A stretch of DNA of 64,000 nucleotides. It comes from an uncultured bacterium (GTDB taxonomy: Bacteria > Patescibacteriota > Minisyncoccia > Phycocordibacterales > PALSA-1337). Numbering within the stretch: position 1 is the stretch's first letter; each line of letters begins with the position of its first letter. The position numbers and the translations under genes were made by a program. The stretch is from positions 235,315 to 299,314 of the forward strand of contig CAIMDG010000001.1 in the NCBI GenBank assembly GCA_903839725.1, in the 5' to 3' direction. Below are positions 94-48,425 of the stretch, one piece after another. The notes below the pieces were generated by a model. It was not told the origin of the DNA, did no database searches, and was given only the letters and a program-made list of their open reading frames with translations.

Positions 94-711
94 TTATTTG
101 TACCTCTTTTTGATCTCTTCAAAAATCTCCGGAAATTCTAATTCATTGAAATGGTTTTGGTCTTTAAAGGTATGCGCCACAGCACTTGGAAAGAGTTCTT
201 TGTATGTTTCGAAATCACTAAATGGAACGACGACATCATCGGTACTGTGGAATAATACAATATCTTTAACTTGATTCGTGACACCACTTATATCATTTCC
301 AAAAATAAAGTTGGTATTGTACGTATGTTTCTTATTCTTACCATCATACGGCACAGCGACGAGAATAAGAGCTTTGATCTTCTTGGGAACAACATTCTCA
401 GAGAGATATTTGATCAAGAATAAACCACCCAATGAATGACCAACGAACGTAGCATCATCTTTCAAAAAAGGAATCATCCGTTCAAACCACGCTTTCCATT
501 CTTCATAACGAGCGTTCTCTTTGTTCGGCATGCGTGGTGCAAATACTTCGAAGTGTGGTCCGAGCTTTTCTTGGAGTGTATCAGTCCATTTGTGAGATGG
601 TTTGAAATTGGAAACTATAACCGCCTTTGTTTTGAGACGATTCAAAAAGTCCTCGCGAGTATCGAGTGCATGACCGCCGTGAATGAGGATGATTTGGTGA
701 GGCATAGCCAT
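94..711 (-). CDS. alpha/beta serine hydrolase, YdeN/RBBP9-like
   Basis: VGHSLGG nucleophile-elbow motif and an IILIHGG start. It is a paralog of the 53827..54393 product. The ORF-track 5' extension to 951 runs through a 46-bp palindrome and is judged non-coding, so the start was placed at MAMPHQ. Confidence 0.6.
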   Translation of the reverse strand: MAMPHQIILIHGGHALDTREDFLNRLKTKAVIVSNFKPSHKWTDTLQEKLGPHFEVFAPRMPNKENARYEEWKAWFERMIPFLKDDATFVGHSLGGLFLIKYLSENVVPKKIKALILVAVPYDGKNKKHTYNTNFIFGNDISGVTNQVKDIVLFHSTDDVVVPFSDFETYKELFPSAVAHTFKDQNHFNELEFPEIFEEIKKRYK

Positions 712-906
712 ATTATGACATTTTCTAGATGTATTTGCTTGAATTAAAAACTTTTTATCTCGCCTATTTGATAATTTTGTGATATAATTTAGTAACAACT
801 TTATGTTTTCTAATAAATCATTCGGATCAAGACCCTCCACATTTTTAACATTAGTTAGATTTATTCTTGCAGTACAAATTATGGCCCTATCATTGACTTT
901 CGTGTT

Positions 907-952
907 CATGAGGAATACAATAGTCCCAATTGGGACTATTGTATTCCTCATG
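907..952. repeat. 46-bp perfect palindrome catgaggaatacaatagtcccaattgggactattgtattcctcatg
   Basis: Read directly from the sequence. It is intergenic, upstream of the hydrolase gene. Confidence 0.9.
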
Positions 953-1005
953 AAGTGTGGATAACTTGCTAAATTAACTTTCTTAGTCTATACTATTTAT
1001 GTACC

Positions 1006-1817: not shown

Positions 1818-3899
1818 TTATACTACTTTTTTCTTTCTTTTACCTTTCTTCCCCGTCACATCAACCCCATATTTCTCCTCCAACTTAAACAACTCATCTC
1901 GTATCAGCGCCGCAGTCTCAAAATCTAAAGCCTGCACAGCCTGCGCCATAGCTTCTTCCTTCTGCTTCATCAGTAACTTTGGGTTGGACTTCGCGAGATC
2001 TTCATCAAGCTTCACGAGTTCATACACAGCTTTATCGTGCTCACTGCGCAACTGATCAGTGATGTCATGAATTGCCTTTTTGATAGTTTGTGGAGTAATA
2101 CCGTGCTTGGTATTGTACGCAACCTGGATTGCACGACGACGATCGGTCTCGCGAATGGCATTACTCATAGAGCCGGTCATATTGTCAGCATAGAGGATAA
2201 CGCGACCAGCTGAGTTACGAGCCGCACGACCAATGGTCTGAATGAGTGATGTCTCTGAACGTAAAAATCCTTCTTTATCAGCATCGAGAATACCGATGAG
2301 TGATACTTCTGGCAGATCGAGACCTTCACGGAGGAGGTTAACACCAACAAGAATATCATACTTCCCTTTGCGGAAATCAGTAAGAATAGTAATGCGTTCA
2401 ATGGTTTTAATATCACTGTGGAGATATGCAGCCTTTATTTTCTTTCCTGCCTGCGCAGGCAGGTCCTTTATAAAATCTGTCAGGTCTTCCGCCATCTTCT
2501 TGGTCAATGTTGTAGCAATCACACGATCACCGATCTTGATTGTCTTCTCAGCTTCTTCGATGAAATCGAAAATCTGACCCTTATAGCCCTTACTCTCACG
2601 AATCGGACGAATATCAACCACTGGATCAATCAACCCTGTTGGACGAATGACCTGTTCAACAACCTGCTCACTATTGGCAGCTTCATATTTTCCTGGGGTT
2701 GCCGAGGTATATATCATCGGACCGATGCGCGCCAAGAATTCATCGAACTTCAACGGACGATTGTCTTTGGCTGAAGGCAAACGAAAACCGTGTTCAACCA
2801 GAGTCTCTTTACGTGAAGCATCACCGGCAAACATGCCGTTTAACTGAGGAATAGTTACGTGTGATTCATCGACAACGGTCAGGAAGTCAGGCTTACCATT
2901 CTTGTCCTTAGGAAAATATGCGAGAAGTGAATCGGGTGCTTCACCAGGCATTTTGCCAGAGAAATGGCGTGAATAGTTTTCAATACCATTGGTGTAGCCA
3001 ATTTCTTTAATCATCGAGAGATCGTACTTCACACGACGCTTCAGACGTTCAGCTTCGAGATTCTTGCCAGCTTTTTCGAGAACTTTGAGACGATCAGCGA
3101 GTTCAGCTTGAATAGTCTTCACGGCCTTTTCACTTTGCTCATCACTTGAAATGAAGTGCTTTGCAGGAAATATAAAAATATCTTTGTGATCATTGCGCAC
3201 AGACCTTGAAACGGGATCAAGTTCAACGATGTGACTAATCATGCCGCCTTCATATTCGATACGATACACAGTTTTTTCATTCACCGGCATAACTTCGAGC
3301 ATATTACCGAGTGCACGGAAATTACCAGACTTCAGATCAGCATTAGTACGTTCAAAATGAATATCGATAAGTTTACGAATGAGTTCAGCACGCGACAATT
3401 CCATGCCAACTGAAAGTTTAAGATTCACCTTCTGATATTCTTCAGGACTTCCTAAACCATATATACAAGAAACAGATGCAACAATGATCACATCTTTACG
3501 AGTGAGCAATGCTTGTGTCGAAGCGTGACGAAGACGCTCGATCTCTTCATTGATCATCGCTTCCTTCTCAATATAGGTATCAGTCGCTGGCATATACGCT
3601 TCTGGCTGATAGTAGTCGTAATACGAAACGAAATAGTGCACAGCATTATTCGGAAAAAATTCACGATACTCTTGAGCAAGCTGAGCGGCGAGTGTTTTGT
3701 TATGAGCAATAACCAAGGTTGGCTTATTGTAGTTTTTGATCACATTGGCCATAGTAAAGGTCTTTCCTGAGCCAGTGACTCCAAGTAGAGTTTGACGTTT
3801 GAAACCCTTTTTAAGGCCTTCATTCAGGCCTGAAATAGCCTTTGGTTGATCACCGGCTGGAGGAAATGGTGTGGCAAGCTTGAACATAGATTCAGACAT
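1818..3899 (-). CDS. uvrB: excinuclease ABC subunit B UvrB
   Basis: GVTGSGKTFT Walker A, helicase motifs and a C-terminal UvrB/UvrC-interaction coiled coil. Full-length at 693 aa. Confidence 0.95.
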   Translation of the reverse strand: MSESMFKLATPFPPAGDQPKAISGLNEGLKKGFKRQTLLGVTGSGKTFTMANVIKNYNKPTLVIAHNKTLAAQLAQEYREFFPNNAVHYFVSYYDYYQPEAYMPATDTYIEKEAMINEEIERLRHASTQALLTRKDVIIVASVSCIYGLGSPEEYQKVNLKLSVGMELSRAELIRKLIDIHFERTNADLKSGNFRALGNMLEVMPVNEKTVYRIEYEGGMISHIVELDPVSRSVRNDHKDIFIFPAKHFISSDEQSEKAVKTIQAELADRLKVLEKAGKNLEAERLKRRVKYDLSMIKEIGYTNGIENYSRHFSGKMPGEAPDSLLAYFPKDKNGKPDFLTVVDESHVTIPQLNGMFAGDASRKETLVEHGFRLPSAKDNRPLKFDEFLARIGPMIYTSATPGKYEAANSEQVVEQVIRPTGLIDPVVDIRPIRESKGYKGQIFDFIEEAEKTIKIGDRVIATTLTKKMAEDLTDFIKDLPAQAGKKIKAAYLHSDIKTIERITILTDFRKGKYDILVGVNLLREGLDLPEVSLIGILDADKEGFLRSETSLIQTIGRAARNSAGRVILYADNMTGSMSNAIRETDRRRAIQVAYNTKHGITPQTIKKAIHDITDQLRSEHDKAVYELVKLDEDLAKSNPKLLMKQKEEAMAQAVQALDFETAALIRDELFKLEEKYGVDVTGKKGKRKKKVV
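2446..2463. repeat. 18-bp perfect GC-rich palindrome CCTGCCTGCGCAGGCAGG inserted in frame in uvrB (encodes LPAQAG)
   Basis: Identical copy at 8389..8406 in rpiB. The AT-rich context makes it stand out. Confidence 0.9.
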
Positions 3900-4675
3900 G
3901 TGAATACTATAGCGTGTTTTCGGAACTTATGGAATTTGAAAATAAAAACCGCGGAATCTATATTGCAGATTCCGCGGTGCATTGCTCAAACCAACTATGC
4001 TCATAGTTCGCACACGTGCGACAAATTAATCGCTCGGACCACCAAACCCTTCACCCGAATGCTCGGTGGTGTTGATACCCGCTTCCGCAGAAACAAATAA
4101 GGGAACCTTGGCTTCAAGAGCCACAGGAGGAGGAAAGAAAATTGCCCTGATTTCCGCCCTCGTCAAGCTATTCTTGACCCAAGCATTGTGGATACGACGA
4201 TAGTCTGTCCCGTAATACCACCCGACGATGCCACGCTTCTGACGAGCCATGACATTGCTACCAGTGGTTGAACCGATCCTTGTCCGACATGGCCGCACGC
4301 CTTCTGGCAATACAGCCGGTGATGTATCTAGTTGCATAATGGTATGTATTTGTCCAAAGAACCAACTTCACTTTGTATTTCTTTCCGCACTCACGGTAGA
4401 AAAAGCGAACGGACCCCTTTGTTTGGGGCCCGTATCTGTAATCAAGAGATGATATTAATTACACAGACTGGACCCAAACAAGCATATCCTTTGCAAAGGA
4501 ATGCTTATAAGTTGAGACCACGTGTGTAATCCATATATTCATGTAAAAAGTATACATCAGCGTATATTGAATGCAAGTGGATTACAAAATATTCATTTTA
4601 GCAATAATGGACTTCAAATATTGACTAAATATAATGATTATAGTATGGTTCAGTAAATCAAAAGAAAGACATTGA

Positions 4676-4861
4676 ATGAAAAAATCTTGTCCAATAATTG
4701 AGGTTGGTAAAATTAATGCATCGGTAGCTCAAAGACGTGGCGGTCATGTGAATATAATAACAAGGCCATTAAAAGAAGCTCTGAAAGGAGCGGCTCGCCT
4801 GGCAAAACATCAATATGGTGAAACTTCACAAACTTTCAAATCAATCGCCTGTCGAATGTAA
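4676..4861 (+). CDS. small hypothetical protein (61 aa)
   Basis: ORF followed by a plus-oriented intrinsic terminator at 4888..4915. No recognisable domain. Confidence 0.25.
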   Translation: MKKSCPIIEVGKINASVAQRRGGHVNIITRPLKEALKGAARLAKHQYGETSQTFKSIACRM

Positions 4862-4887
4862 ATACACCTTATTCTCTATCATTACAC

Positions 4888-4915
4888 GCCGAGTCTAACT
4901 CGGCCTTTTATTTGA
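4888..4915 (+). terminator. rho-independent terminator (gccgagt-cta-actcggc + TTTTATTT)
   Basis: Stem-loop followed by a T-run on the plus strand only. Confidence 0.5.
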
Positions 4916-4921
4916 AAATAA

Positions 4922-5917
4922 TTATTTCCTCAGCATAACCTTACATGCAGCAGCATATATATCTTTTTCACCCATACCATAGTGTTCAATGAGTTCATCT
5001 GGTGTGCCTGACTGACCAAATTGGTCTATGACGCCAATGAATTCGATCGGTACTGGTTTGTGTGATGCGAGACATTCCGCAACAGCAGAACCCATACCTC
5101 CAGCGATCTGATGTTCTTCGACGGTAACAATTGCGCCGGTCTGATTTGCAAGCTGAACAATAGCATCAACATCAAGTGGTTTGATTGTTGCCAAATTTAA
5201 AACAATAACAGCCTTACCTTCTGCTTCCAATTTCTGCGCAACCTTAAGTGCTCGATGAAGTAATGCGCCCGTAGCAATAATCCCCACATTGAAACTTGAT
5301 CCTTGAGACTTGAACATTACTTCCGCTTTTCCTATCTCAAATGGTGTATCTTCAGTCGTGATGATCGGTGTCTTCTCGCGAGCAAGACGAATATACGTTG
5401 GCTCTTGTGTTTGTGCTGCAGCAATGGTTGCCTTACGTGCTTCGATAGCATCACAAGGTGAAATCACTACCATACGAGGAATAACACGCATGAGGGCAAT
5501 ATCTTCAATGGCTTGATGTGTTCCACCATCAGGACCAACAGAAACACCCGCATGTGAACCTGCAATTTTTACTGGTACATTATTGTAGGCAATCGTTGTA
5601 CGGATTTGTTCCCAATTCCTGCCCGGACTGAACATTGCATACGATGTCATGAATGGAATCTTGCCCATAGCAGCCATACCTGAAGCAACTCCTGCGAGAT
5701 TTTGTTCTGCAATACCCATCTCGATGAATCGATCTGAAAACTTCTGCTTGAATCCAGTCATCATCGTCGAATCAACAAGGTCCGCACATAATCCTACAAC
5801 ATTTCTATTCATCTCAGCAGCCTTCAATAACCCTTCACCAAAACCTTTGCGAATAGGAACTTGTTCGACATCTGTGTCGAAGATTTTTGAATTGAGTTGT
5901 TGAGATGGATTGATCAT
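4922..5917 (-). CDS. tkt: transketolase, C-terminal (pyrimidine-binding) subunit
   Basis: Transketolase Pyr and C-terminal domains (GSHAGVSVGPDGGTHQ...). Split-gene arrangement with the N-terminal subunit upstream. Confidence 0.9.
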   Translation of the reverse strand: MINPSQQLNSKIFDTDVEQVPIRKGFGEGLLKAAEMNRNVVGLCADLVDSTMMTGFKQKFSDRFIEMGIAEQNLAGVASGMAAMGKIPFMTSYAMFSPGRNWEQIRTTIAYNNVPVKIAGSHAGVSVGPDGGTHQAIEDIALMRVIPRMVVISPCDAIEARKATIAAAQTQEPTYIRLAREKTPIITTEDTPFEIGKAEVMFKSQGSSFNVGIIATGALLHRALKVAQKLEAEGKAVIVLNLATIKPLDVDAIVQLANQTGAIVTVEEHQIAGGMGSAVAECLASHKPVPIEFIGVIDQFGQSGTPDELIEHYGMGEKDIYAAACKVMLRK

Positions 5918-7082: not shown

Positions 7083-7111
7083 GTCGGGTATATTATACCA
7101 TGGAAGCGATA

Positions 7112-7209
7112 CAAATCCGCAAATGCATGCGAATGACGCAAATAAGCGCACCAAAATCTAAAATAGAGTGTGATTCATTCGCATTATTCGCATGCATTTG
7201 CGGATTTGC
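7112..7209. promoter_or_regulatory. long inverted repeat (caaatccgcaaatgcatgcgaat ... attcgcatgcatttgcggatttg) upstream of tkt; member of the AATGCGAAT palindrome family
   Basis: 23-bp perfect arms with a ~50-bp spacer, read from the sequence. Related sites at 7913..8001 and 41737..41797. Confidence 0.6.
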
Positions 7210-7216
7210 ATCGCAA

Positions 7217-7900: not shown

Positions 7901-7912
7901 GTGTGTATTTAA

Positions 7913-8001
7913 TACGAATCTACGAATAATGCGAATCTACAAATTATTAATATGCGAATTGTTTGCGTTATTTGTGGCATTCGCATCATTTGTAGATTCG
8001 T
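7913..8001. promoter_or_regulatory. palindromic motif pair acgaatctacgaataatgcgaatctacaaat / atttgtggcattcgcatcatttgtagattcgt upstream of rpe
   Basis: Near-identical to the pair at 41737..41797 upstream of prfA. Confidence 0.6.
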
Positions 8002-8006
8002 TGAGA

Positions 8007-8495
8007 CTACTCAATATTATCTATCTGCTCAATTCTTCTCTGGTGTCTCTCATCTCCACTAAATGGAGTTTCTAGCCATGATTCAACTGCATCACATGCT
8101 GCATCTTGCTCAACATATAATGCTCCAATTGAAAGAATATTTGCATCATTGTCATTTCGAGTATGTCTCAAGACCTCTTGATTACCCCCGTACCATACTG
8201 CTGTGCGTACTCCAGGAAAACGATTTGCGACAATAGCTTCACCTTCTCCTGAAGCGCCAAAGATAATAGCCTTGGTCTCACCCTTCAAATCCTGTGCAAC
8301 CTTCATCGCGGCTGCTGACATAAAAATAGGATAATCATCACCAGGAACGAGTTCATGAGCACCTACATCAAGTACTGTATACTTTTTGCCTGCCTGCGCA
8401 GGCAGGGCTTGCAAGAATGATTTAACAGCTTCTTTGAGAGCAAAGCCAGCATGGTCAGAAGCGAGGATGATAGTTGGGGTTTTTGAAGAATTCAT
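8007..8495 (-). CDS. rpiB: ribose-5-phosphate isomerase B (RpiB/LacAB family)
   Basis: ILASDHAGF ... GALYVE ... RHQRRI motifs. Carries the in-frame 18-bp palindrome insertion LPAQAGKK. Confidence 0.9.
   Translation of the reverse strand: MNSSKTPTIILASDHAGFALKEAVKSFLQALPAQAGKKYTVLDVGAHELVPGDDYPIFMSAAAMKVAQDLKGETKAIIFGASGEGEAIVANRFPGVRTAVWYGGNQEVLRHTRNDNDANILSIGALYVEQDAACDAVESWLETPFSGDERHQRRIEQIDNIE
8389..8406. repeat. second copy of the 18-bp palindrome CCTGCCTGCGCAGGCAGG, in frame in rpiB
   Basis: Identical to 2446..2463. Confidence 0.9.
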
Positions 8496-22504: not shown

Positions 22505-22539
22505 ATAAATAAAATGTAGCATTAATTGAAAGAAGAACC

Positions 22540-22648
22540 AATAGGGGCACATGTACTTATTTTCTGCACAAGTTTAGAGACATGTACATTACATCGCGTA
22601 CCTCAATGTTTACAAACTTGTGCAGAAAATAAGTACATGTGCCCCTAT
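22540..22648. repeat. hairpin module E1: 36-bp perfect inverted arms around a 38-nt loop
   Basis: aataggggcacatgtacttattttctgcacaagttt - loop - aaacttgtgcagaaaataagtacatgtgcccctatt. Confidence 0.9.
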
Positions 22649-23046
22649 TGGTTTTTGATGTGGTATATGAAAACGCCACCACTTCTGGCAAGTGGCGGCG
22701 TGGTCCAAGGTTGATTCGTCCTCGCGGACGAATTATACATCAGATAGGTTGGGTTTGATTGCCAACCTCGTTTTTGATTGAAACTCAACGTATCAATGTG
22801 CGCCAGGGCACACGCCAGAATCATCCGGAAGTGCTCATGCATGGCCGCCGTGAATTCACGGGGTCTTGCAGAATTCCAACGGAAAGAGTGATACGTTGCA
22901 CCGATGCTCTGGGTAAACCAGAGTGTGCAAGCAGCTCCTACATACAGGAGCGGAAGAACATCAGTTGTGAAGATATTCATACCTAAAAAAAGTCTATAAC
23001 AAGGAGCATGTAATTGCAAGATGATGTAATACATAGCGACTAAGAA
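22649..23046. other. GC-rich (about 50 %) non-coding core with multiple stable hairpins between modules E1 and E2
   Basis: Contains a hairpin plus T-run at about 22746..22778, a ccgtgaattcacgg palindrome and a gctcctacatacaggagc hairpin. ORFs here have no protein-like features. Confidence 0.5.
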
Positions 23047-23156
23047 AACGGGGATGTATACACACTTTTTCTGTACAAGTTTGTAAACATTGAGGTACGC
23101 TGTGTAATGTAAGTGTCTCTAAACTTGTACAGAAAAAGTGTGTATGCACCCCCGTT
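23047..23156. repeat. hairpin module E2, an inverted copy of E1 with the loop conserved and arms diverged compensatorily
   Basis: The E2 loop is the reverse complement of the E1 loop (2-3 mismatches). The arms differ from E1 at many positions but remain self-complementary. Confidence 0.9.
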
Positions 23157-23202
23157 CTCTCCAACGATTCCTCAAAACAAAAATATATCGTATACTGGTG
23201 AT

Positions 23203-24211: not shown

Positions 24212-25786
24212 ATGCCTAACAAAGATCAGCACAACCTGATTAGCCAGCCTGCGCGTGCAGGTCGCCCTCCTGTGGTTGTTATCATGGGTCACATTGACCA
24301 TGGTAAATCTACCCTTCTTGACTATGTACGCAAATCACACATCGTTGATGGTGAAGCAGGCGGTATCACACAACACGTTGGCGCGTATCAAGCAGAGCAT
24401 GTTGGAGCTGAAGGAAAAAAACATCTCATTACATTCTTGGATACACCCGGTCACGCAGCATTTTGTTCTATCCGTGAACGTGGTGCGCACGCAGCTGATG
24501 TGGCTATTCTCGTCGTATCAGCAGAAGATGGTGTCAAACCTCAAACTATCGAAGCGTACAAAAATATTAAAGCTGAGAAAATTCCCTACATTGTTGCTAT
24601 CAACAAGATCGACAAGCCAAACGCTGACATAGATCGCACAAAACAAAGTCTTGGTGAAAATGAAATATATGTTGAAGGTTGGGGTGGCGATATTCCCTGC
24701 GTTCCTATTTCTGCCTTGAATGGAACAGGTGTTTCAGAACTTCTCGATATGGTTATGCTTGTCGCAGAACTTGCTGACCTTTCTACTGATGCAAATGCAT
24801 CTGCATGTGGTTCGATCATCGAATCAGAACTTGATACACGCAAAGGTATTTCAGCAACACTTCTTATTAAGGATGGTACGTTAACCACAGGAACGGTAGT
24901 TGTTGCCGGTGGAGCATATGCACCAGTAAGATTTATTGAAAATTTCAAAGGTGAAAAGATTACTTCAGGTATTGCTTCAATGCCAGTTCGTATTCTCGGT
25001 TGGAATACTATACCTGCATGTGGAACAGACTTCATAACCGTAAAGACAAAGAAAGAGGCTGAGAAGATGGTTAGTGAATTTGAGGCTGAAGCTCGTCGCT
25101 CATCTTCAAAGACAGCTATCAATGTATCTGCGAAGAAGACTGAACAAGTTGGAGATGACAAGACTCCTCAGATTGTTATTATTCCTTTTGTTATCAAAAC
25201 TGACGTGATCGGTTCTCTCGAAGGTATCAAACATGAGCTCGCAAAAATCAAACAGGACAAAGTTGTCATCAAAATAGTTTCTGAAGGTATTGGCGAAATC
25301 AATGAAAATGATGTGAAGATTGCTGCTGGTGATCCAAACCTGATGCTTATTGGTTTCAATGCTGCACCTGACAAAAAAGCCGCAACTATGATCGAACGTT
25401 CTCCTACACCAATCCAGATCAAAAATTTCTCAATTATCTATGAGTTAACGAACTTTATTCAAGAACTTGTTACTTCAAAAATTCCAAAGGAATATATCGA
25501 AGAAGTCACTGGTCGTGCAAAAATCATGGCAGTATTCTCAAAGGACAAAGATAAACAAGTCGTTGGGGGTAAAGTTGAGACAGGTACGATTGAAATAGGT
25601 AGCGATGTCCGTATCATGCGTCGTGAGACCGAGATAGGTCGCGGAAGAATCCGTGAATTACAACAGCAAAAAAAGAAAGCTTCTGAAGTTCGTGAAGGAT
25701 ATGAATTTGGTACGCTCATTGATGCCAAGATTGAAATCGCGCCAGGAGATAGAGTTGAAGCCGTAAAAACAGTAGAGAAGAAATAA
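24212..25786 (+). CDS. infB: translation initiation factor IF-2, lacking the long N-terminal region
   Basis: G domain starts 20 aa from the N-terminus (GHIDHGKSTLLD, DTPGH, NKID). C-terminal domains are present. 524 aa. Confidence 0.9.
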   Translation: MPNKDQHNLISQPARAGRPPVVVIMGHIDHGKSTLLDYVRKSHIVDGEAGGITQHVGAYQAEHVGAEGKKHLITFLDTPGHAAFCSIRERGAHAADVAILVVSAEDGVKPQTIEAYKNIKAEKIPYIVAINKIDKPNADIDRTKQSLGENEIYVEGWGGDIPCVPISALNGTGVSELLDMVMLVAELADLSTDANASACGSIIESELDTRKGISATLLIKDGTLTTGTVVVAGGAYAPVRFIENFKGEKITSGIASMPVRILGWNTIPACGTDFITVKTKKEAEKMVSEFEAEARRSSSKTAINVSAKKTEQVGDDKTPQIVIIPFVIKTDVIGSLEGIKHELAKIKQDKVVIKIVSEGIGEINENDVKIAAGDPNLMLIGFNAAPDKKAATMIERSPTPIQIKNFSIIYELTNFIQELVTSKIPKEYIEEVTGRAKIMAVFSKDKDKQVVGGKVETGTIEIGSDVRIMRRETEIGRGRIRELQQQKKKASEVREGYEFGTLIDAKIEIAPGDRVEAVKTVEKK

Positions 25787-29055: not shown

Positions 29056-32000
29056 ATGTCCCGCTTCAGCCACCTCCACGTCCACTCCCACTATTCTTTG
29101 CTTGCGGCACTACCAAAAGTTGATGATTTGGTAGATGAAGCCAAGAAACTCGGCATGAAGGCATTAGCACTTACTGACAATGGTAACCTCTATGGTGCTA
29201 TTGAATTCTATAAAGCCTGCACGAAAAAAGAGATCAAACCTATCATTGGTGTCGACTTTTTTGTCGCCATCCGTTCACGCACAGATCAACAGGCAGGAAT
29301 AGACAACCGTCGCAGTCGTCTCGTCCTTCTTGCTATGAATGAAAAGGGGTATCAAAATCTCATCCAACTCGTTACACTCTCACACCTCGAAGGTTTCTAT
29401 TACAAGCCTCGTATCGACCGCGAACTTATCGAAAAATACAGTGAAGGTCTTATCTGTATTTCGCCTTCATTCGGAGGGGAAATATCACAATCCCTCAAAA
29501 GCAGAAATCAAGACAAGGCCATAGAAGTAGCCACGTTCTATAAAAAAGTATTTGGTGACAGGCTATATATCGAAATAAGTCGACATCCTGAAATCGATGA
29601 TCATGAAGGAAATATGAAAACCTTGGCCACCTTCGCAAAAAGCCAACAGATTCCAGTATGCGCCGCACATGATGTGTACTATCTCAAACCAGAAGATCGT
29701 TTTGCTCGTGAGACACTTGTACGCGTGAATTCTCACAGTGATTCATCTGATCGTATTTCTGACAGTGATGAAGATGATTTTTCCTTTATTTCACCTGAGC
29801 GAGCTGAAGAACTATTCAGGGACATGCCTGAAGCTCTCGACAATACCCAGAAAATAGTTGATTTATGTAATCTCACCATGGAACTGGGTAAATGGGTCTT
29901 CCCTGCATTCACCGTAGAAAGTGGACGAACACCAGATGATGAATTGCGTCATGTGGTATTCGAAGGATTTGCTCGACGTGGTATCGAAAAAACAGATGAA
30001 CTCGTGAAGCGTGCGGAGTATGAACTCAAAGTCATCAAAGACAAAGGGTATTCTCCATACTTCCTTGTGGTGGCGGACATGCTTCGGTTTGCCAGAGAAA
30101 ATGGCATATTGAGTAATATCCGCGGATCAGTTTCTGGATCGATGGTCACGTATCTCGCAGGTATCACCAACATAAACCCGATTGAATATGAAATTCCCTT
30201 TGAACGCTTCCTGAATCCTGAACGTCCATCTGCTCCTGATATCGACATGGACTATGCTGACGATCGTCGCGATGACATGATTACCTATGTCCGTGGAAAA
30301 TACGGCAAGGATCACGTCGCTCAAATCGGAACATTCGGTACCATGGCTGCTCGTGGTTCAGTTCGTGACGTCGCTCGTGCTATGGGATTCCCCTACGATG
30401 TTGCTGATCGTATTTCAAAGATGATTCCTATGGGTGCACAAGGATTTCCCATGACTATTGATCGTGCCTTGAATGAAGTACCTGAGCTCAAAGAAATCTA
30501 CAATTCTGAACAGGATACTCGACGTATTATTGATATGGCAAGAAAGATCGAAGGTTGTGCGCGTCACATCGGTGTGCACGCTGCTGGTGTGGTTATTTCT
30601 CCGACTGCACTTACCGATTACACCGCACTTCAGTTTGATCCAAAAGGTGAAGGCAAAATCATCACCCAATACGATATGTACTCGATCGAAGAAGCTGGTC
30701 TTCTCAAGTTCGACTTCCTTGGGCTCAAAAACTTAACTATTATTGCCGACAGTATTGATCGCATCGAAAAGCTCACCGGTATCAAAGTTGATTACGATAC
30801 TATTCCCGTCGATGATACAAAAACATTCGAAATGCTTGCTCGCGGAGAAACTGCCGATCTCTTCCAGTTGAACGGTGACGGTATGACTAGATTCCTGAAA
30901 GACTTGAAACCAACAACCATTCACGACATCAACGCTATGGTGGCACTGTATCGTCCAGGTCCTATTCAGTTCATCCCGGAATATATTGCCCGCAAACACG
31001 ATCGATCACTCATCAAATATCTTGACCCTGCACTCGAGACAATTCTCGACAAAACATATGGCATTCTCGTGTATCAAGACGACCTCTTGATGATGGCTCA
31101 CAAGCTCGCTGGATATAGTTGGGGTGAAGTGGACAAGTTCCGTAAAGCCGTTGGTAAAAAAATTCCTGAAGAAATGGCGAAGCAAAAAGAGAAATTCATC
31201 GAAGGTTGTGTGAAGCACAGCAAATGGTCAGAGAAAAAAGCTAAAGAAGTCTGGAAATGGATTGAGCCATTTGCAGCGTACGGTTTCAACAAAGCTCACT
31301 CAGTATCATATGGTCGCGTCGCATATATTACTGCATACCTCAAAGCGCATTTTCCTGAAATATATTTGTCGGCTGTCCTTACATCTGAACAAGGTGAAAC
31401 TGAAAAAGTTGCTGAAACTATCGCTGAATGTAAGCGCATGAATATTCCTGTTCTTCCTCCTGACGTGAATGAAAGTTTCAGTCAATTCACTGTGGTCAAG
31501 ACTCTTGCAGAGGTCTCTCCAGAGCGGGCGCCAACTCCAAACCAACCGGCACAACATGTGCATGTGGGACGACCTTCGGAAGGAGCGAAGGCGAATCAGC
31601 AGATTCGTGCTTGGCCGACTGAGAATGAGGTGCTGGCCGAGCACGGCCAGACACCGTTCGTCCCACATGCACATGTTGTGCCGGTTGGTTCTTATCGCAT
31701 TCGTTTCGGTTTGGTAACGATCAAAAACTTCGGCCAAGGAATATCAACCGGCATCACCGATGAACGCAAGCGAGCTGGAAAATTCAAGTCATTGAATGAC
31801 TTCCTCGATCGCGTCAAAGACAAAAACCTCAATAAAAAATCTCTCGAAGCCCTCATCAAATCTGGAGCCATGGATTGCTTCGGTATTGATCGCGGTGTCA
31901 TGATGGCGAACCTCGATCTCATTCTTGATTACAACAAAGAAAATGCAAATCAGCACAGTGATCAAACATCCCTCTTCGGCATGTTCACCAATGCCTCTGA

Positions 32001-32418
32001 TGTACCAACTCTTCGTCTCATCGATGCGCCTCATGCCACAATGCGCGCCAAACTCGCATGGGAAAAGGAATTGCTTGGCTTGTATGTTTCAGGACATCCC
32101 CTTGAAGAATACCGCGAAATAATCACCAAAAGAGATATCGACATCAAACGAGCTCTTGAAACCGGCAAAGAAGGTGGCACTGTGGTATTGGCAGCCATGA
32201 TCAATGATGTGCGCCTCATTCAAACAAAAAAGAATGAAACTATGGCATTCATTACTATTGCTGATTTTTCCGGAGAATCAGAGGCCGTTGTATTCCCTCG
32301 CGTCTACAATGAATTCAAAGCACTTATTGCTCCTGATATTTGTCTCGCAATCAAAGCAACAATTAATTCAAGAAATGGAGAAAAAGGATTTATTCTGGAA
32401 CGATTAAAAAAACTATAA
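29056..32418 (+). CDS. dnaE: DNA polymerase III alpha subunit
   Basis: PHP domain (HLHVHSHYS), palm, fingers and OB domains. It contains an about 55-aa in-frame insertion encoded by a GC-rich palindromic element at 31540..31690. Confidence 0.95.
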   Translation: MSRFSHLHVHSHYSLLAALPKVDDLVDEAKKLGMKALALTDNGNLYGAIEFYKACTKKEIKPIIGVDFFVAIRSRTDQQAGIDNRRSRLVLLAMNEKGYQNLIQLVTLSHLEGFYYKPRIDRELIEKYSEGLICISPSFGGEISQSLKSRNQDKAIEVATFYKKVFGDRLYIEISRHPEIDDHEGNMKTLATFAKSQQIPVCAAHDVYYLKPEDRFARETLVRVNSHSDSSDRISDSDEDDFSFISPERAEELFRDMPEALDNTQKIVDLCNLTMELGKWVFPAFTVESGRTPDDELRHVVFEGFARRGIEKTDELVKRAEYELKVIKDKGYSPYFLVVADMLRFARENGILSNIRGSVSGSMVTYLAGITNINPIEYEIPFERFLNPERPSAPDIDMDYADDRRDDMITYVRGKYGKDHVAQIGTFGTMAARGSVRDVARAMGFPYDVADRISKMIPMGAQGFPMTIDRALNEVPELKEIYNSEQDTRRIIDMARKIEGCARHIGVHAAGVVISPTALTDYTALQFDPKGEGKIITQYDMYSIEEAGLLKFDFLGLKNLTIIADSIDRIEKLTGIKVDYDTIPVDDTKTFEMLARGETADLFQLNGDGMTRFLKDLKPTTIHDINAMVALYRPGPIQFIPEYIARKHDRSLIKYLDPALETILDKTYGILVYQDDLLMMAHKLAGYSWGEVDKFRKAVGKKIPEEMAKQKEKFIEGCVKHSKWSEKKAKEVWKWIEPFAAYGFNKAHSVSYGRVAYITAYLKAHFPEIYLSAVLTSEQGETEKVAETIAECKRMNIPVLPPDVNESFSQFTVVKTLAEVSPERAPTPNQPAQHVHVGRPSEGAKANQQIRAWPTENEVLAEHGQTPFVPHAHVVPVGSYRIRFGLVTIKNFGQGISTGITDERKRAGKFKSLNDFLDRVKDKNLNKKSLEALIKSGAMDCFGIDRGVMMANLDLILDYNKENANQHSDQTSLFGMFTNASDVPTLRLIDAPHATMRAKLAWEKELLGLYVSGHPLEEYREIITKRDIDIKRALETGKEGGTVVLAAMINDVRLIQTKKNETMAFITIADFSGESEAVVFPRVYNEFKALIAPDICLAIKATINSRNGEKGFILERLKKL
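31540..31690. repeat. ~150-bp GC-rich nested palindrome inserted in frame in dnaE
   Basis: 33-bp perfect inverted arms aaccaaccggcacaacatgtgcatgtgggacga / tcgtcccacatgcacatgttgtgccggttggtt with inner palindromes. About 58 % GC against about 38 % for the gene. Confidence 0.85.
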
Positions 32419-41719: not shown

Positions 41720-41736
41720 AGTGGTTTAAATATAAT

Positions 41737-41797
41737 ACGAATCAACGAATAATGCGAATGCAACAAATTTGTAGCATTCGCATTATTTGTAGATTCG
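41737..41797. promoter_or_regulatory. palindromic motif pair acgaatcaacgaataatgcgaatgcaacaaat / atttgtagcattcgcattatttgtagattcg upstream of prfA
   Basis: Nearly identical to 7913..8001. Confidence 0.6.
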
Positions 41798-41804
41798 AAT
41801 CTCC

Positions 41805-48125: not shown

Positions 48126-48425
48126 ACATGACTGTTGGTAACTCGACTTCGCAACCCCTCTAATCTAAGCTAAGGTACAGGACAGATTTTGATATTTCTG
48201 GTATTATTATTTTACAACTGAATAAGTGACCTAACCCCTAAATAACCCTTTGTTTTCTAGGATATGGTCGAAAAGCCGTCCAAAGTAAAGAACTCCTAAT
48301 CAGAGCTACTTTGGACGGTCACATCTCGAAAGAGGTGTGGGCACTCCCTGCGGGGTTTGTCGGCCTGGTTAGGAGCTTTTTGCTATCTAGTTCTCGGTCA
48401 TTATTAGTAAAACCGTCCAAATTTT

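Follow-up and report, generated by a model that had tools for sequence, protein, structure and literature searches.

An 18-bp palindrome inserted in frame in bacterial genes shares its termini with a GIY-YIG nuclease cassette

In a 64-kb stretch of bacterial DNA (the window, whose coordinates are used throughout unless another contig is named), the exact 18-bp GC-rich palindrome CCTGCCTGCGCAGGCAGG, here called P18, lies inside uvrB and rpiB, two unrelated essential genes, and a degenerate copy lies in infB, which is essential as well. All three copies are clean, true and recent insertions of 18 bp that are read in frame within their host genes. P18 proved to be the smallest of a graded family of hairpins that has its termini in common with a cassette encoding a GIY-YIG nuclease domain, and it occurs in many lineages of the candidate phyla radiation (CPR) and beyond. 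We consider it likely that P18 is selfish and recently mobile, a miniature of this cassette with its terminal inverted repeats (TIRs) in the manner of a miniature inverted-repeat transposable element (MITE), and that it is kept in surface turns of proteins. The window itself carries a LOOT RNA (RF03000, 68.8 bits) at 48228-48357 on the plus strand, and its proteins match metagenome-assembled genomes (MAGs) of Patescibacteria and Paceibacterota; it therefore comes from a CPR bacterium.

Results

The window holds two exact copies of P18 and a third, CCAGCCTGCGCGTGCAGG, with three mismatches (Table 1). The codon phase is common to all three, xxC CTG CCT GCG CAG GCA GGx, and the resulting peptide stands in the contexts D-LPAQAG-KK (UvrB), A-LPAQAG-KK (RpiB) and S-QPARAG-R (initiation factor IF2). 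None of 100 dinucleotide-preserving shuffles of the window contained three matches (mean 0.01). A preliminary description of this DNA had pointed to the identical palindrome in uvrB and rpiB, read in one frame as LPAQAG between AT-rich flanks, and this was borne out in a window of about 40% GC. It had also noted the degenerate infB copy, for which the peptide QPARAG and the phase stand while the coordinates, given as 24245-24264, have to be corrected to 24244-24261.

Comparison with relatives established that these copies were gained. Among the 120 closest UvrB homologues, LPAQAG occurs in the window's own protein only, and the site is empty in 118 of the 120. UvrB proteins 95% and 94% identical to that of the window read ..FLKE/KKIKAAYLHSD (the slash marks the insertion point here and below) without an insert, and the syntenic contig of the 95% relative (L121/L122) has a clean 18-bp gap in its uvrB DNA (..AAA GAG/AAG AAG..). 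The Glu codon GA/R is thus interrupted as GA-(18-mer)-A, with zero bases duplicated. The rpiB copy is missing from L121 and from a further relative, L123, which read FLQ-E-KKY and FLQ-G-KGY against FLQ-ALPAQAG-KKY in the window, and the syntenic L121 DNA again shows an 18-bp gap. For infB, IF2 relatives at 93, 89 and 87% identity are without the six residues (..NLIAR/PPVV, MPNKDQHNLIAR/PPVV), and the DNA of relative L230 confirms an 18-nt gap. The reciprocal case exists as well: L121 has a 21-nt element, CCTGCCTACCGGACAGGCAGG (LPTGQAG), within the Ser codon TC/T of the gene for the transketolase C-terminal subunit, at a site that is empty in the window.

At the uvrB, rpiB and transketolase sites, filled and empty alleles differ by the element alone, without target-site duplication, and in the compared genomes the insertion point always falls between codon positions 2 and 3. 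The insertions in uvrB, rpiB and infB together with that in the L121 transketolase gene mean that close genomes differ by gains in both directions. No other GC-rich clean coding indels of 18-21 nt were seen when the window was compared by blastn with four relatives over more than 40 kb.

The same sites are filled in a patchy manner. In L123, which is 85% identical, the uvrB site holds a 21-nt variant, CCTGCCTGCCGACAGGCAGG followed by G (LPADRQG), while the 95%-identical relatives have no insert there. The upstream residues TDFIKD are common to the window and L123 alone, and in that block of 100 nt the window scores 0.81 to L123 versus 0.73 to L121, the order being reversed in the rest of the gene. 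Similarly, the 70%-identical L229 holds ACACCTGCGCATGCAGG (TPAHAG) at the infB site, which is filled in the window too and empty in the five closer relatives listed. This pattern suggests either that filled alleles spread through homologous recombination or that insertion happened again at hot spots.

Structural comparison places the peptide where host proteins tolerate extra residues. Solved structures of RpiB (3he8) and UvrB (3uwx and others) each have a six-residue gap exactly opposite LPAQAG, and in both proteins the insert sits in the turn that joins a helix to the next strand of an alpha/beta domain. In an AlphaFold model of the window's UvrB, which is of moderate confidence (mean pLDDT 65.6), LPAQAG is a coil between helix 467-479 and strand 490-494. 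Exact P18 copies from other genomes in GatB, a beta-CASP RNase, HtrA and UvrD likewise stand opposite net gaps of 4-7 residues in each solved homologue, so that this holds for all six proteins tested. A UvrB homologue from Taylorbacteria (P0051) carries an unrelated 14-residue insert, PPPPSQSSGFGGAR, in the same helix-strand turn; this turn of UvrB is a general hot spot for insertions.

In a scan that took one genome per species, exact P18 was found in at least 120 genome stretches. By the taxon labels in their record titles, 71 of these are CPR (WWE3, Microgenomates, Parcubacteria/Paceibacterota, Saccharibacteria, Dojkabacteria and others among the listed stretches), 15 are Bacteroidota, 8 are simply 'bacterium' and 26 are others. 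At 40% GC we estimate about 1e-12 chance matches per base; set against 71 CPR-labelled stretches, this means that the CPR copies are not due to chance. Matches in high-GC genomes can be: those in Streptomyces, Burkholderiales and Terriglobia could be accidental, as could most of the 25 viral stretches with exact P18, which are mostly of 58-67% GC and uninformative. Nor does an assembly or adaptor artefact account for the pattern, as the P18-bearing MAGs derive from many studies and assemblers, the window's UvrB is on record from two contigs, and neither a reading-phase bias (see below) nor loop positions would be expected of an artefact. With the shuffled windows added, the reading of the low-GC copies as chance, convergence or artefact is effectively refuted. 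The flanks of P18 copies are unrelated except in a handful of pairs, and no conserved flank was found beside the 18-mer; the repeated unit is therefore the 18-mer itself. Near-variants with one to three mismatches are rarer than exact P18 in the same loci.

The reading phase was determined from the longest open reading frame (ORF) through each of 127 P18 copies. Of these, 91 lie in ORFs of at least 100 aa, 70 of them in ORFs of at least 200 aa, and the remaining 36 in short ORFs or intergenic DNA. The LPAQAG phase is used by 52 of the 70 copies in ORFs of at least 200 aa (p = 3e-12) and by 37 of 47 when genomes below 45% GC and ORFs of at least 150 aa are taken; in short ORFs (below 100 aa) the phases are even (11:14:11), without bias. 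The other frames encode PACAGR and CLRRQ. Since an insertion mechanism is blind to reading frame, the bias reflects selection on the peptide, to which a target preference may add. The dinucleotide before P18 is GA, GG or AA in 34 of 43 coding copies, and the split codon is usually one for D, E, G or N. Across five verified sites no common target sequence emerged beyond this purine-rich upstream preference, which could also be explained by selection for loop codons.

Taken together, the empty sites in relatives and the phase bias mean that neither of the two situations that would have spoken against the preliminary description applies, namely that relatives have the same residues without a palindromic sequence, or that the 18-mer is a common motif with no in-frame bias. 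Both the observation and the interpretation of the preliminary description hold: the feature is real, and it is a selfish insertion.

A function for the host would be an alternative to selfishness. The palindrome could be kept as a DNA uptake sequence, as a binding or methylation site for a protein, or as an RNA hairpin that affects expression; its exact conservation across distant lineages and its predicted stability (-11.0 kcal/mol with RNA parameters) would suit such a role, and a dependence on DNA uptake is attributed to CPR bacteria. Yet the data fit this explanation poorly and we regard it as very improbable. Uptake sequences occur about once per kb and arise by point-mutation drift without clean insertions, whereas P18 has two exact copies in 64 kb, a density far below that, and its copies arose through insertion of 18 bp. 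Moreover, the orthologous sites of relatives 93-95% identical are without P18, and the positions it occupies are unrelated genes, intergenic DNA and pseudo-tRNA fragments. On the same two grounds, low density and clean insertion, we rejected its assignment to the DNA uptake sequences (DUS) or uptake signal sequences (USS).

P18 is the shortest in a series of GC-rich hairpins of 18-39 nt, mostly multiples of three in length, that begin and end CCTGCCTGC...GCAGGCAGG. We searched the loci under study for half-sites, that is, for a long element bounded by CCTGCCTG and CAGGCAGG. These half-sites were mostly isolated, and the trail led to contig L070, from a WOR-3 MAG, on which a single gene for the restriction subunit HsdR of a type I system carries four in-frame elements, all with the same ends (Table 1). 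The smallest is exact P18 and the largest a 292-bp segment that encodes a GIY-YIG domain and splits the HSDR_N domain of the host protein.

This segment represents a widespread cassette. A protein search with it returned 37 relatives, which lie in fragments of HsdM, HsdR, HsdS, MsrB and other proteins; of the complete ones, most have LPAP(R)P... at one end and ...(A)RQAG at the other. Metagenome contigs, searched with a profile, then gave 328 loci with cassette relatives, 80 of which were kept. In 71 of the 80 the cassette (94-101 aa) is read through inside a long host ORF; among the hosts are HsdR, HsdS, HsdM (here the cassette was met at more than one site), N6-methyltransferases and a helicase-like protein. 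Within these 71 loci cassette length is divisible by three throughout and mostly falls in the range of 282-303 bp. On the left, 50 cassettes start with the 11 nt CCTGCCTGCGC; on the right, 69 finish with the 9 nt GCAGGCAGG; and GA stands directly before the cassette in 59. P18 equals the first 11 nt of the cassette joined to its last 7 nt, with identical outer boundaries and codon phase. In addition, 33 hairpins 20-60 nt long that share the cassette ends, for example the 33-mer CCTGCCTGCGCCGCGGACGTCGCGGCAGGCAGG, were counted in the cassette-bearing loci, and hairpins of 39, 36, 33, 30 and 27 nt adjoin cassettes in the same genes. The 33- and 39-mers have predicted energies of -24 to -28 kcal/mol (RNA parameters), and the variants found in L123 and L121 recur in other loci.

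Codon usage shows constraint at the nucleotide level on the cassette termini, which act as nucleic acid and not merely as a linker peptide. Invariant residues inside the GIY-YIG domain are encoded by 4-6 synonymous codons, the commonest accounting for 27-46%; hardly any variation is seen in the terminal codons for Pro, Ala, Pro, Arg and Ala (CCT 100%, GCG 98%, CCG 95%, CGG 97%, GCA 97%). The final Gly codon varies freely at its third base, so that the right boundary falls directly after GG. Cassettes up to 88% identical in protein sequence occupy unrelated host sites; hence the cassette reaches sites that lack homology and is not limited to homing into a single allele. In the 97-aa cassette Pfam recognised GIY-YIG-type domains alone and no Hint or splicing domain; a Hint domain would not fit into so short a unit. 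Presumably the insert is retained, unspliced, in the host protein.

A different setting was met at four loci (L027 at 1735, L037 at 3540, L038 at 6792 and L110 at 728), where exact P18 lies between nucleotides 10 and 11 of a partial tRNA-Gln copy (..GATCG/TCTAATGG..) and an intact tRNA-Gln stands 120-380 bp away. A small ORF of the YhbQ-type GIY-YIG family adjoins the split copy in three of the four. This makes a second association of P18 with GIY-YIG genes.

The window contains further palindromes and an ORF-poor region (Table 1). One palindrome is also coding: the inverted-repeat arms in dnaE are read through in frame (NQPAQHVHVGRP...PFVPHAHVVPVGS) in a linker that is unlike that of L230, and they are unrelated in sequence to P18. 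Each of the two inverted copies of the element of roughly 120 nt forms a hairpin with arms of 47-51 nt, and two of the three AT-rich 'CGAAT' repeats (7907-8001 and 41730-41800) are 93-94% alike. The ORF-poor region, searched over 3880-4940, gave no Rfam match at E <= 0.1; part of it is conserved in L121.

Table 1. Coordinates of P18 copies, host genes and other features of the window, and the in-frame elements of the HsdR gene on contig L070
Feature	Position	Strand	Description
P18 copy 1, exact	2446..2463		uvrB; minus-strand reading GA/C CTG CCT GCG CAG GCA GG/A; D-LPAQAG
P18 copy 2, exact	8389..8406		rpiB; minus-strand reading GC/C CTG CCT GCG CAG GCA GG/C; A-LPAQAG
P18 copy 3, degenerate (CCAGCCTGCGCGTGCAGG)	24244..24261	+	infB; encodes QPARAG directly ahead of the G domain
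uvrB (UvrB, 693 aa)	1818..3899	-	from the ORF list; homologues named excinuclease ABC subunit B; Pfam UvrB domains
rpiB (RpiB, 162 aa)	8007..8495	-	PDB matches to ribose-5-phosphate isomerase B; syntenic L121 gene has PF02502
infB (short CPR-type IF2)	24212..25786	+	host gene of copy 3
Empty site, transketolase C-terminal subunit gene	5306..5307	-	AAG TC/T CAA; 21-nt variant at this site in L121
dnaE ORF	29056..32418	+	
Inverted repeat in dnaE	31540-31690		perfect 33-nt arms, 85 nt between them
Perfect palindrome	905-954		50 bp, two 25-nt arms without spacer; overlaps the start of ORF 94..951 (-)
Element of roughly 120 nt in two inverted copies	22533-22656 and 23043-23160		around ORF 22645..23034
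AT-rich palindromic repeats, 'CGAAT' type	7106-7214, 7907-8001, 41730-41800		intergenic
ORF-poor region	3900-4920		separates uvrB from the transketolase gene by about 1 kb; no convincing ORF
Partly conserved segment	4025-4582		79% identity to L121
HsdR gene (1170 aa), contig L070	3955-7467	-	type I (Pfam); host of elements 1-4
L070 HsdR element 1			exact P18; LPAQAG
L070 HsdR element 2			21-mer; LSAGQAG
L070 HsdR element 3			39-nt hairpin; LPAPQSEAARQAG
L070 HsdR element 4			292-bp segment, CCTGCCTGCGCCGCGCCCCGGACAA to imperfect inverse ..TTGTCCGCGGCGCGGCAGGCAGG; GIY-YIG domain, PF01541, E = 5e-16

Discussion

With these data in hand, we propose that P18 probably relates to the cassette as a MITE does to its autonomous transposon. 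P18 would enter DNA as an exact 18-bp unit without target-site duplication, and within genes it would survive mainly when placed after the second base of a codon, typically one for D, E, G or N, and translated as Leu-Pro-Ala-Gln-Ala-Gly in a surface turn. The hairpin ends CCTGCCTGC...GCAGGCAGG are the TIRs of the 282-303-bp cassette, whose product is predicted to be a small Slx1/YhbQ-type GIY-YIG nuclease and which is itself read through in host genes. Slx1-type GIY-YIG enzymes cut branched and hairpin DNA, which makes it plausible that this structure-specific nuclease acts on hairpins or cruciforms formed by the GC-rich ends; in this way it may move both the cassette and its miniatures. In addition, filled alleles may pass between related lineages by homologous recombination.

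Two other relations between palindrome and cassette remain live rivals, each of which we judge unlikely. In the first, P18 is not mobile by itself: each copy marks the place of a former full cassette, lost through collapse or through excision between the inverted repeats, so that its two tips became joined. The shared boundaries and codon phase, and the graded hairpins of 27-39 nt beside cassettes in the same genes, are what such a footprint would leave, and a translated cassette needs exactly the LPAQAG phase. The housekeeping sites tell against it: a cassette was never seen at any of them, PF01541 is present in none of the listed UvrB and IF2 homologues, and a cassette-sized insert at the site is found in 0 of 120 aligned UvrB sequences. 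Moreover, 36 of the 127 copies are outside longer ORFs, in short-ORF or intergenic DNA, and other phases are used by 18 of the 70 long-ORF copies; the same exact junction is met more than 150 times, while collapse should yield many; and two close genomes differ by three young insertions of 18-21 nt without any cassette.

In the second, the GC-rich hairpins came first, moved by some other enzyme, and the GIY-YIG ORF homed later into their loop. The hairpins are indeed far more numerous and widespread than the cassettes; the nuclease ORF lies exactly between two arms, which the order of events would explain, and homing endonuclease genes are known for exploiting repeated targets. However, the coding sequence of the cassette spans both arms (LPAPRP.. 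and ..ARQAG), so that arms and ORF form one compact unit, and no other candidate enzyme was seen beside P18 copies, although no systematic search for one was made.

We favor the derivation of P18 from the cassette, while several observations weigh against it. No GIY-YIG gene was detected in the 64-kb window (tblastn with 29 queries, nothing below E = 0.2), the cassette profile found no relatives in viral contigs, and 367 kb of cassette-bearing loci contain no exact P18, though longer miniatures are present. Exact P18 and a cassette were seen together at one locus only, that in L070, and the cassettes of the metagenome contigs may lie in other organisms than the P18 copies of CPR bacteria. The two sequences share just 11 + 7 nt; what ties P18 to the cassette is the graded hairpin series and the identical boundaries. 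The missing target duplication is atypical of MITEs. Finally, GIY-YIG nucleases are known to us as drivers of homing, not of transposition, and we know of no GIY-YIG transposase.

P18 resembles known in-frame palindromic selfish DNA on the one hand and miniature derivatives of coding elements on the other. The former are exemplified by the Rickettsia palindromic elements (RPEs), reportedly described by Ogata and colleagues in 2000, with which the preliminary description had compared it. Like P18, RPEs are palindromic selfish repeats that lie in frame in coding genes and are translated at residue-tolerant places, and P18 is indeed inserted in frame at tolerated surface positions. This analogy stands, family membership does not: RPEs are said to measure roughly 100-150 bp, encoding tens of residues, and to be confined to Rickettsia and close relatives, whereas P18 has 18 bp and six residues and is found in many CPR lineages and other phyla. 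The likeness thus appears to be one of behavior and not of descent, with length and lineage, rather than a comparison of sequences, setting the two apart. We know of no nuclease gene associated with RPEs, while P18 shares its ends with the GIY-YIG cassette.

MITEs are the closest model for the latter. They too are short, non-coding and multi-copy, and essentially consist of the two TIRs of a longer coding element; P18 is a perfect palindrome of two 9-nt arms, and intermediates of 27-39 nt exist. In contrast to MITEs, which usually measure about 50-500 bp, P18 is far smaller, has no target-site duplication and has a partner that encodes a GIY-YIG nuclease instead of a known transposase and is translated within its host protein. 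Other short palindromic repeats, the REP (repetitive extragenic palindromic) sequences and REPINs mobilised by RAYTs (REP-associated tyrosine transposases of the Y1 type), are likewise multi-copy and probably recognised as hairpins. They are extragenic, bear a GTAG or CGTC tag at one end and co-occur with a RAYT gene; P18 was not assigned to them, being largely intragenic and apparently without such a tag. A CRISPR repeat or a terminator was rejected as well, there being no array and no T-run on the coding strand. Yeast mitochondrial GC clusters and the 18-nt PstI palindromes of Neurospora show that short GC-rich palindromes can spread in compact AT-rich genomes, and like P18 they occasionally lie in frame in coding sequence (var1 gene). 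They are organellar and of other sequence, and many GC clusters have target duplications; to our knowledge neither has been linked to a GIY-YIG cassette.

For the cassette, the nearest parallels are homing endonuclease genes and inteins, which are also in-frame nuclease units in conserved genes and missing from close homologues. Unlike inteins, the cassette has no Hint or splicing domain and no self-splicing intron, and it differs from homing genes in its conserved inverted-repeat termini and its presence at unrelated sites. A single case has been reported that looks similar: an Slx1-like GIY-YIG domain inserted in the HsdR protein MCA0838 of Methylococcus capsulatus, missing from an 80%-identical homologue and judged very recent, was described without inverted repeats or miniatures (Dunin-Horkawicz, Feder, Bujnicki 2006, PMC1564403). 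A full-text literature search returned no published description of the 18-mer, of LPAQAG, or of GIY-YIG domains together with palindromes, inverted repeats or restriction-modification subunits, and the P18 family seems undescribed so far.

A bolder view, which we put forward tentatively and hold to be rather doubtful, is that the TIR-flanked GIY-YIG cassettes and the 18-39-nt hairpins form a new class of bacterial transposable elements, in which the structure-specific nuclease, expressed as a domain embedded in the invaded host protein, excises and inserts hairpin-bounded DNA and leaves the target unduplicated. On this view no known mobile element would be smaller than P18, which would be actively reshaping surface loops of essential proteins throughout the CPR and would also move between lineages by recombination.

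If our reading is correct, selfish DNA as small as 18 bp can spread through the most reduced bacterial genomes, where it hides as a six-residue loop in essential proteins. This would explain part of the lineage-specific small insertions in CPR proteins and make P18 a sharp marker of recent DNA exchange among uncultured lineages; insertions of this type should be recognised in annotation and in alignments for phylogeny. The cassette, for its part, would represent an undescribed lifestyle of a nuclease gene, which lies unspliced and in frame between inverted repeats. With a defined GC-rich hairpin as its recognition site, such a nuclease could serve as a tool, and the preference of the cassette for restriction-modification genes could affect the evolution of defence systems.

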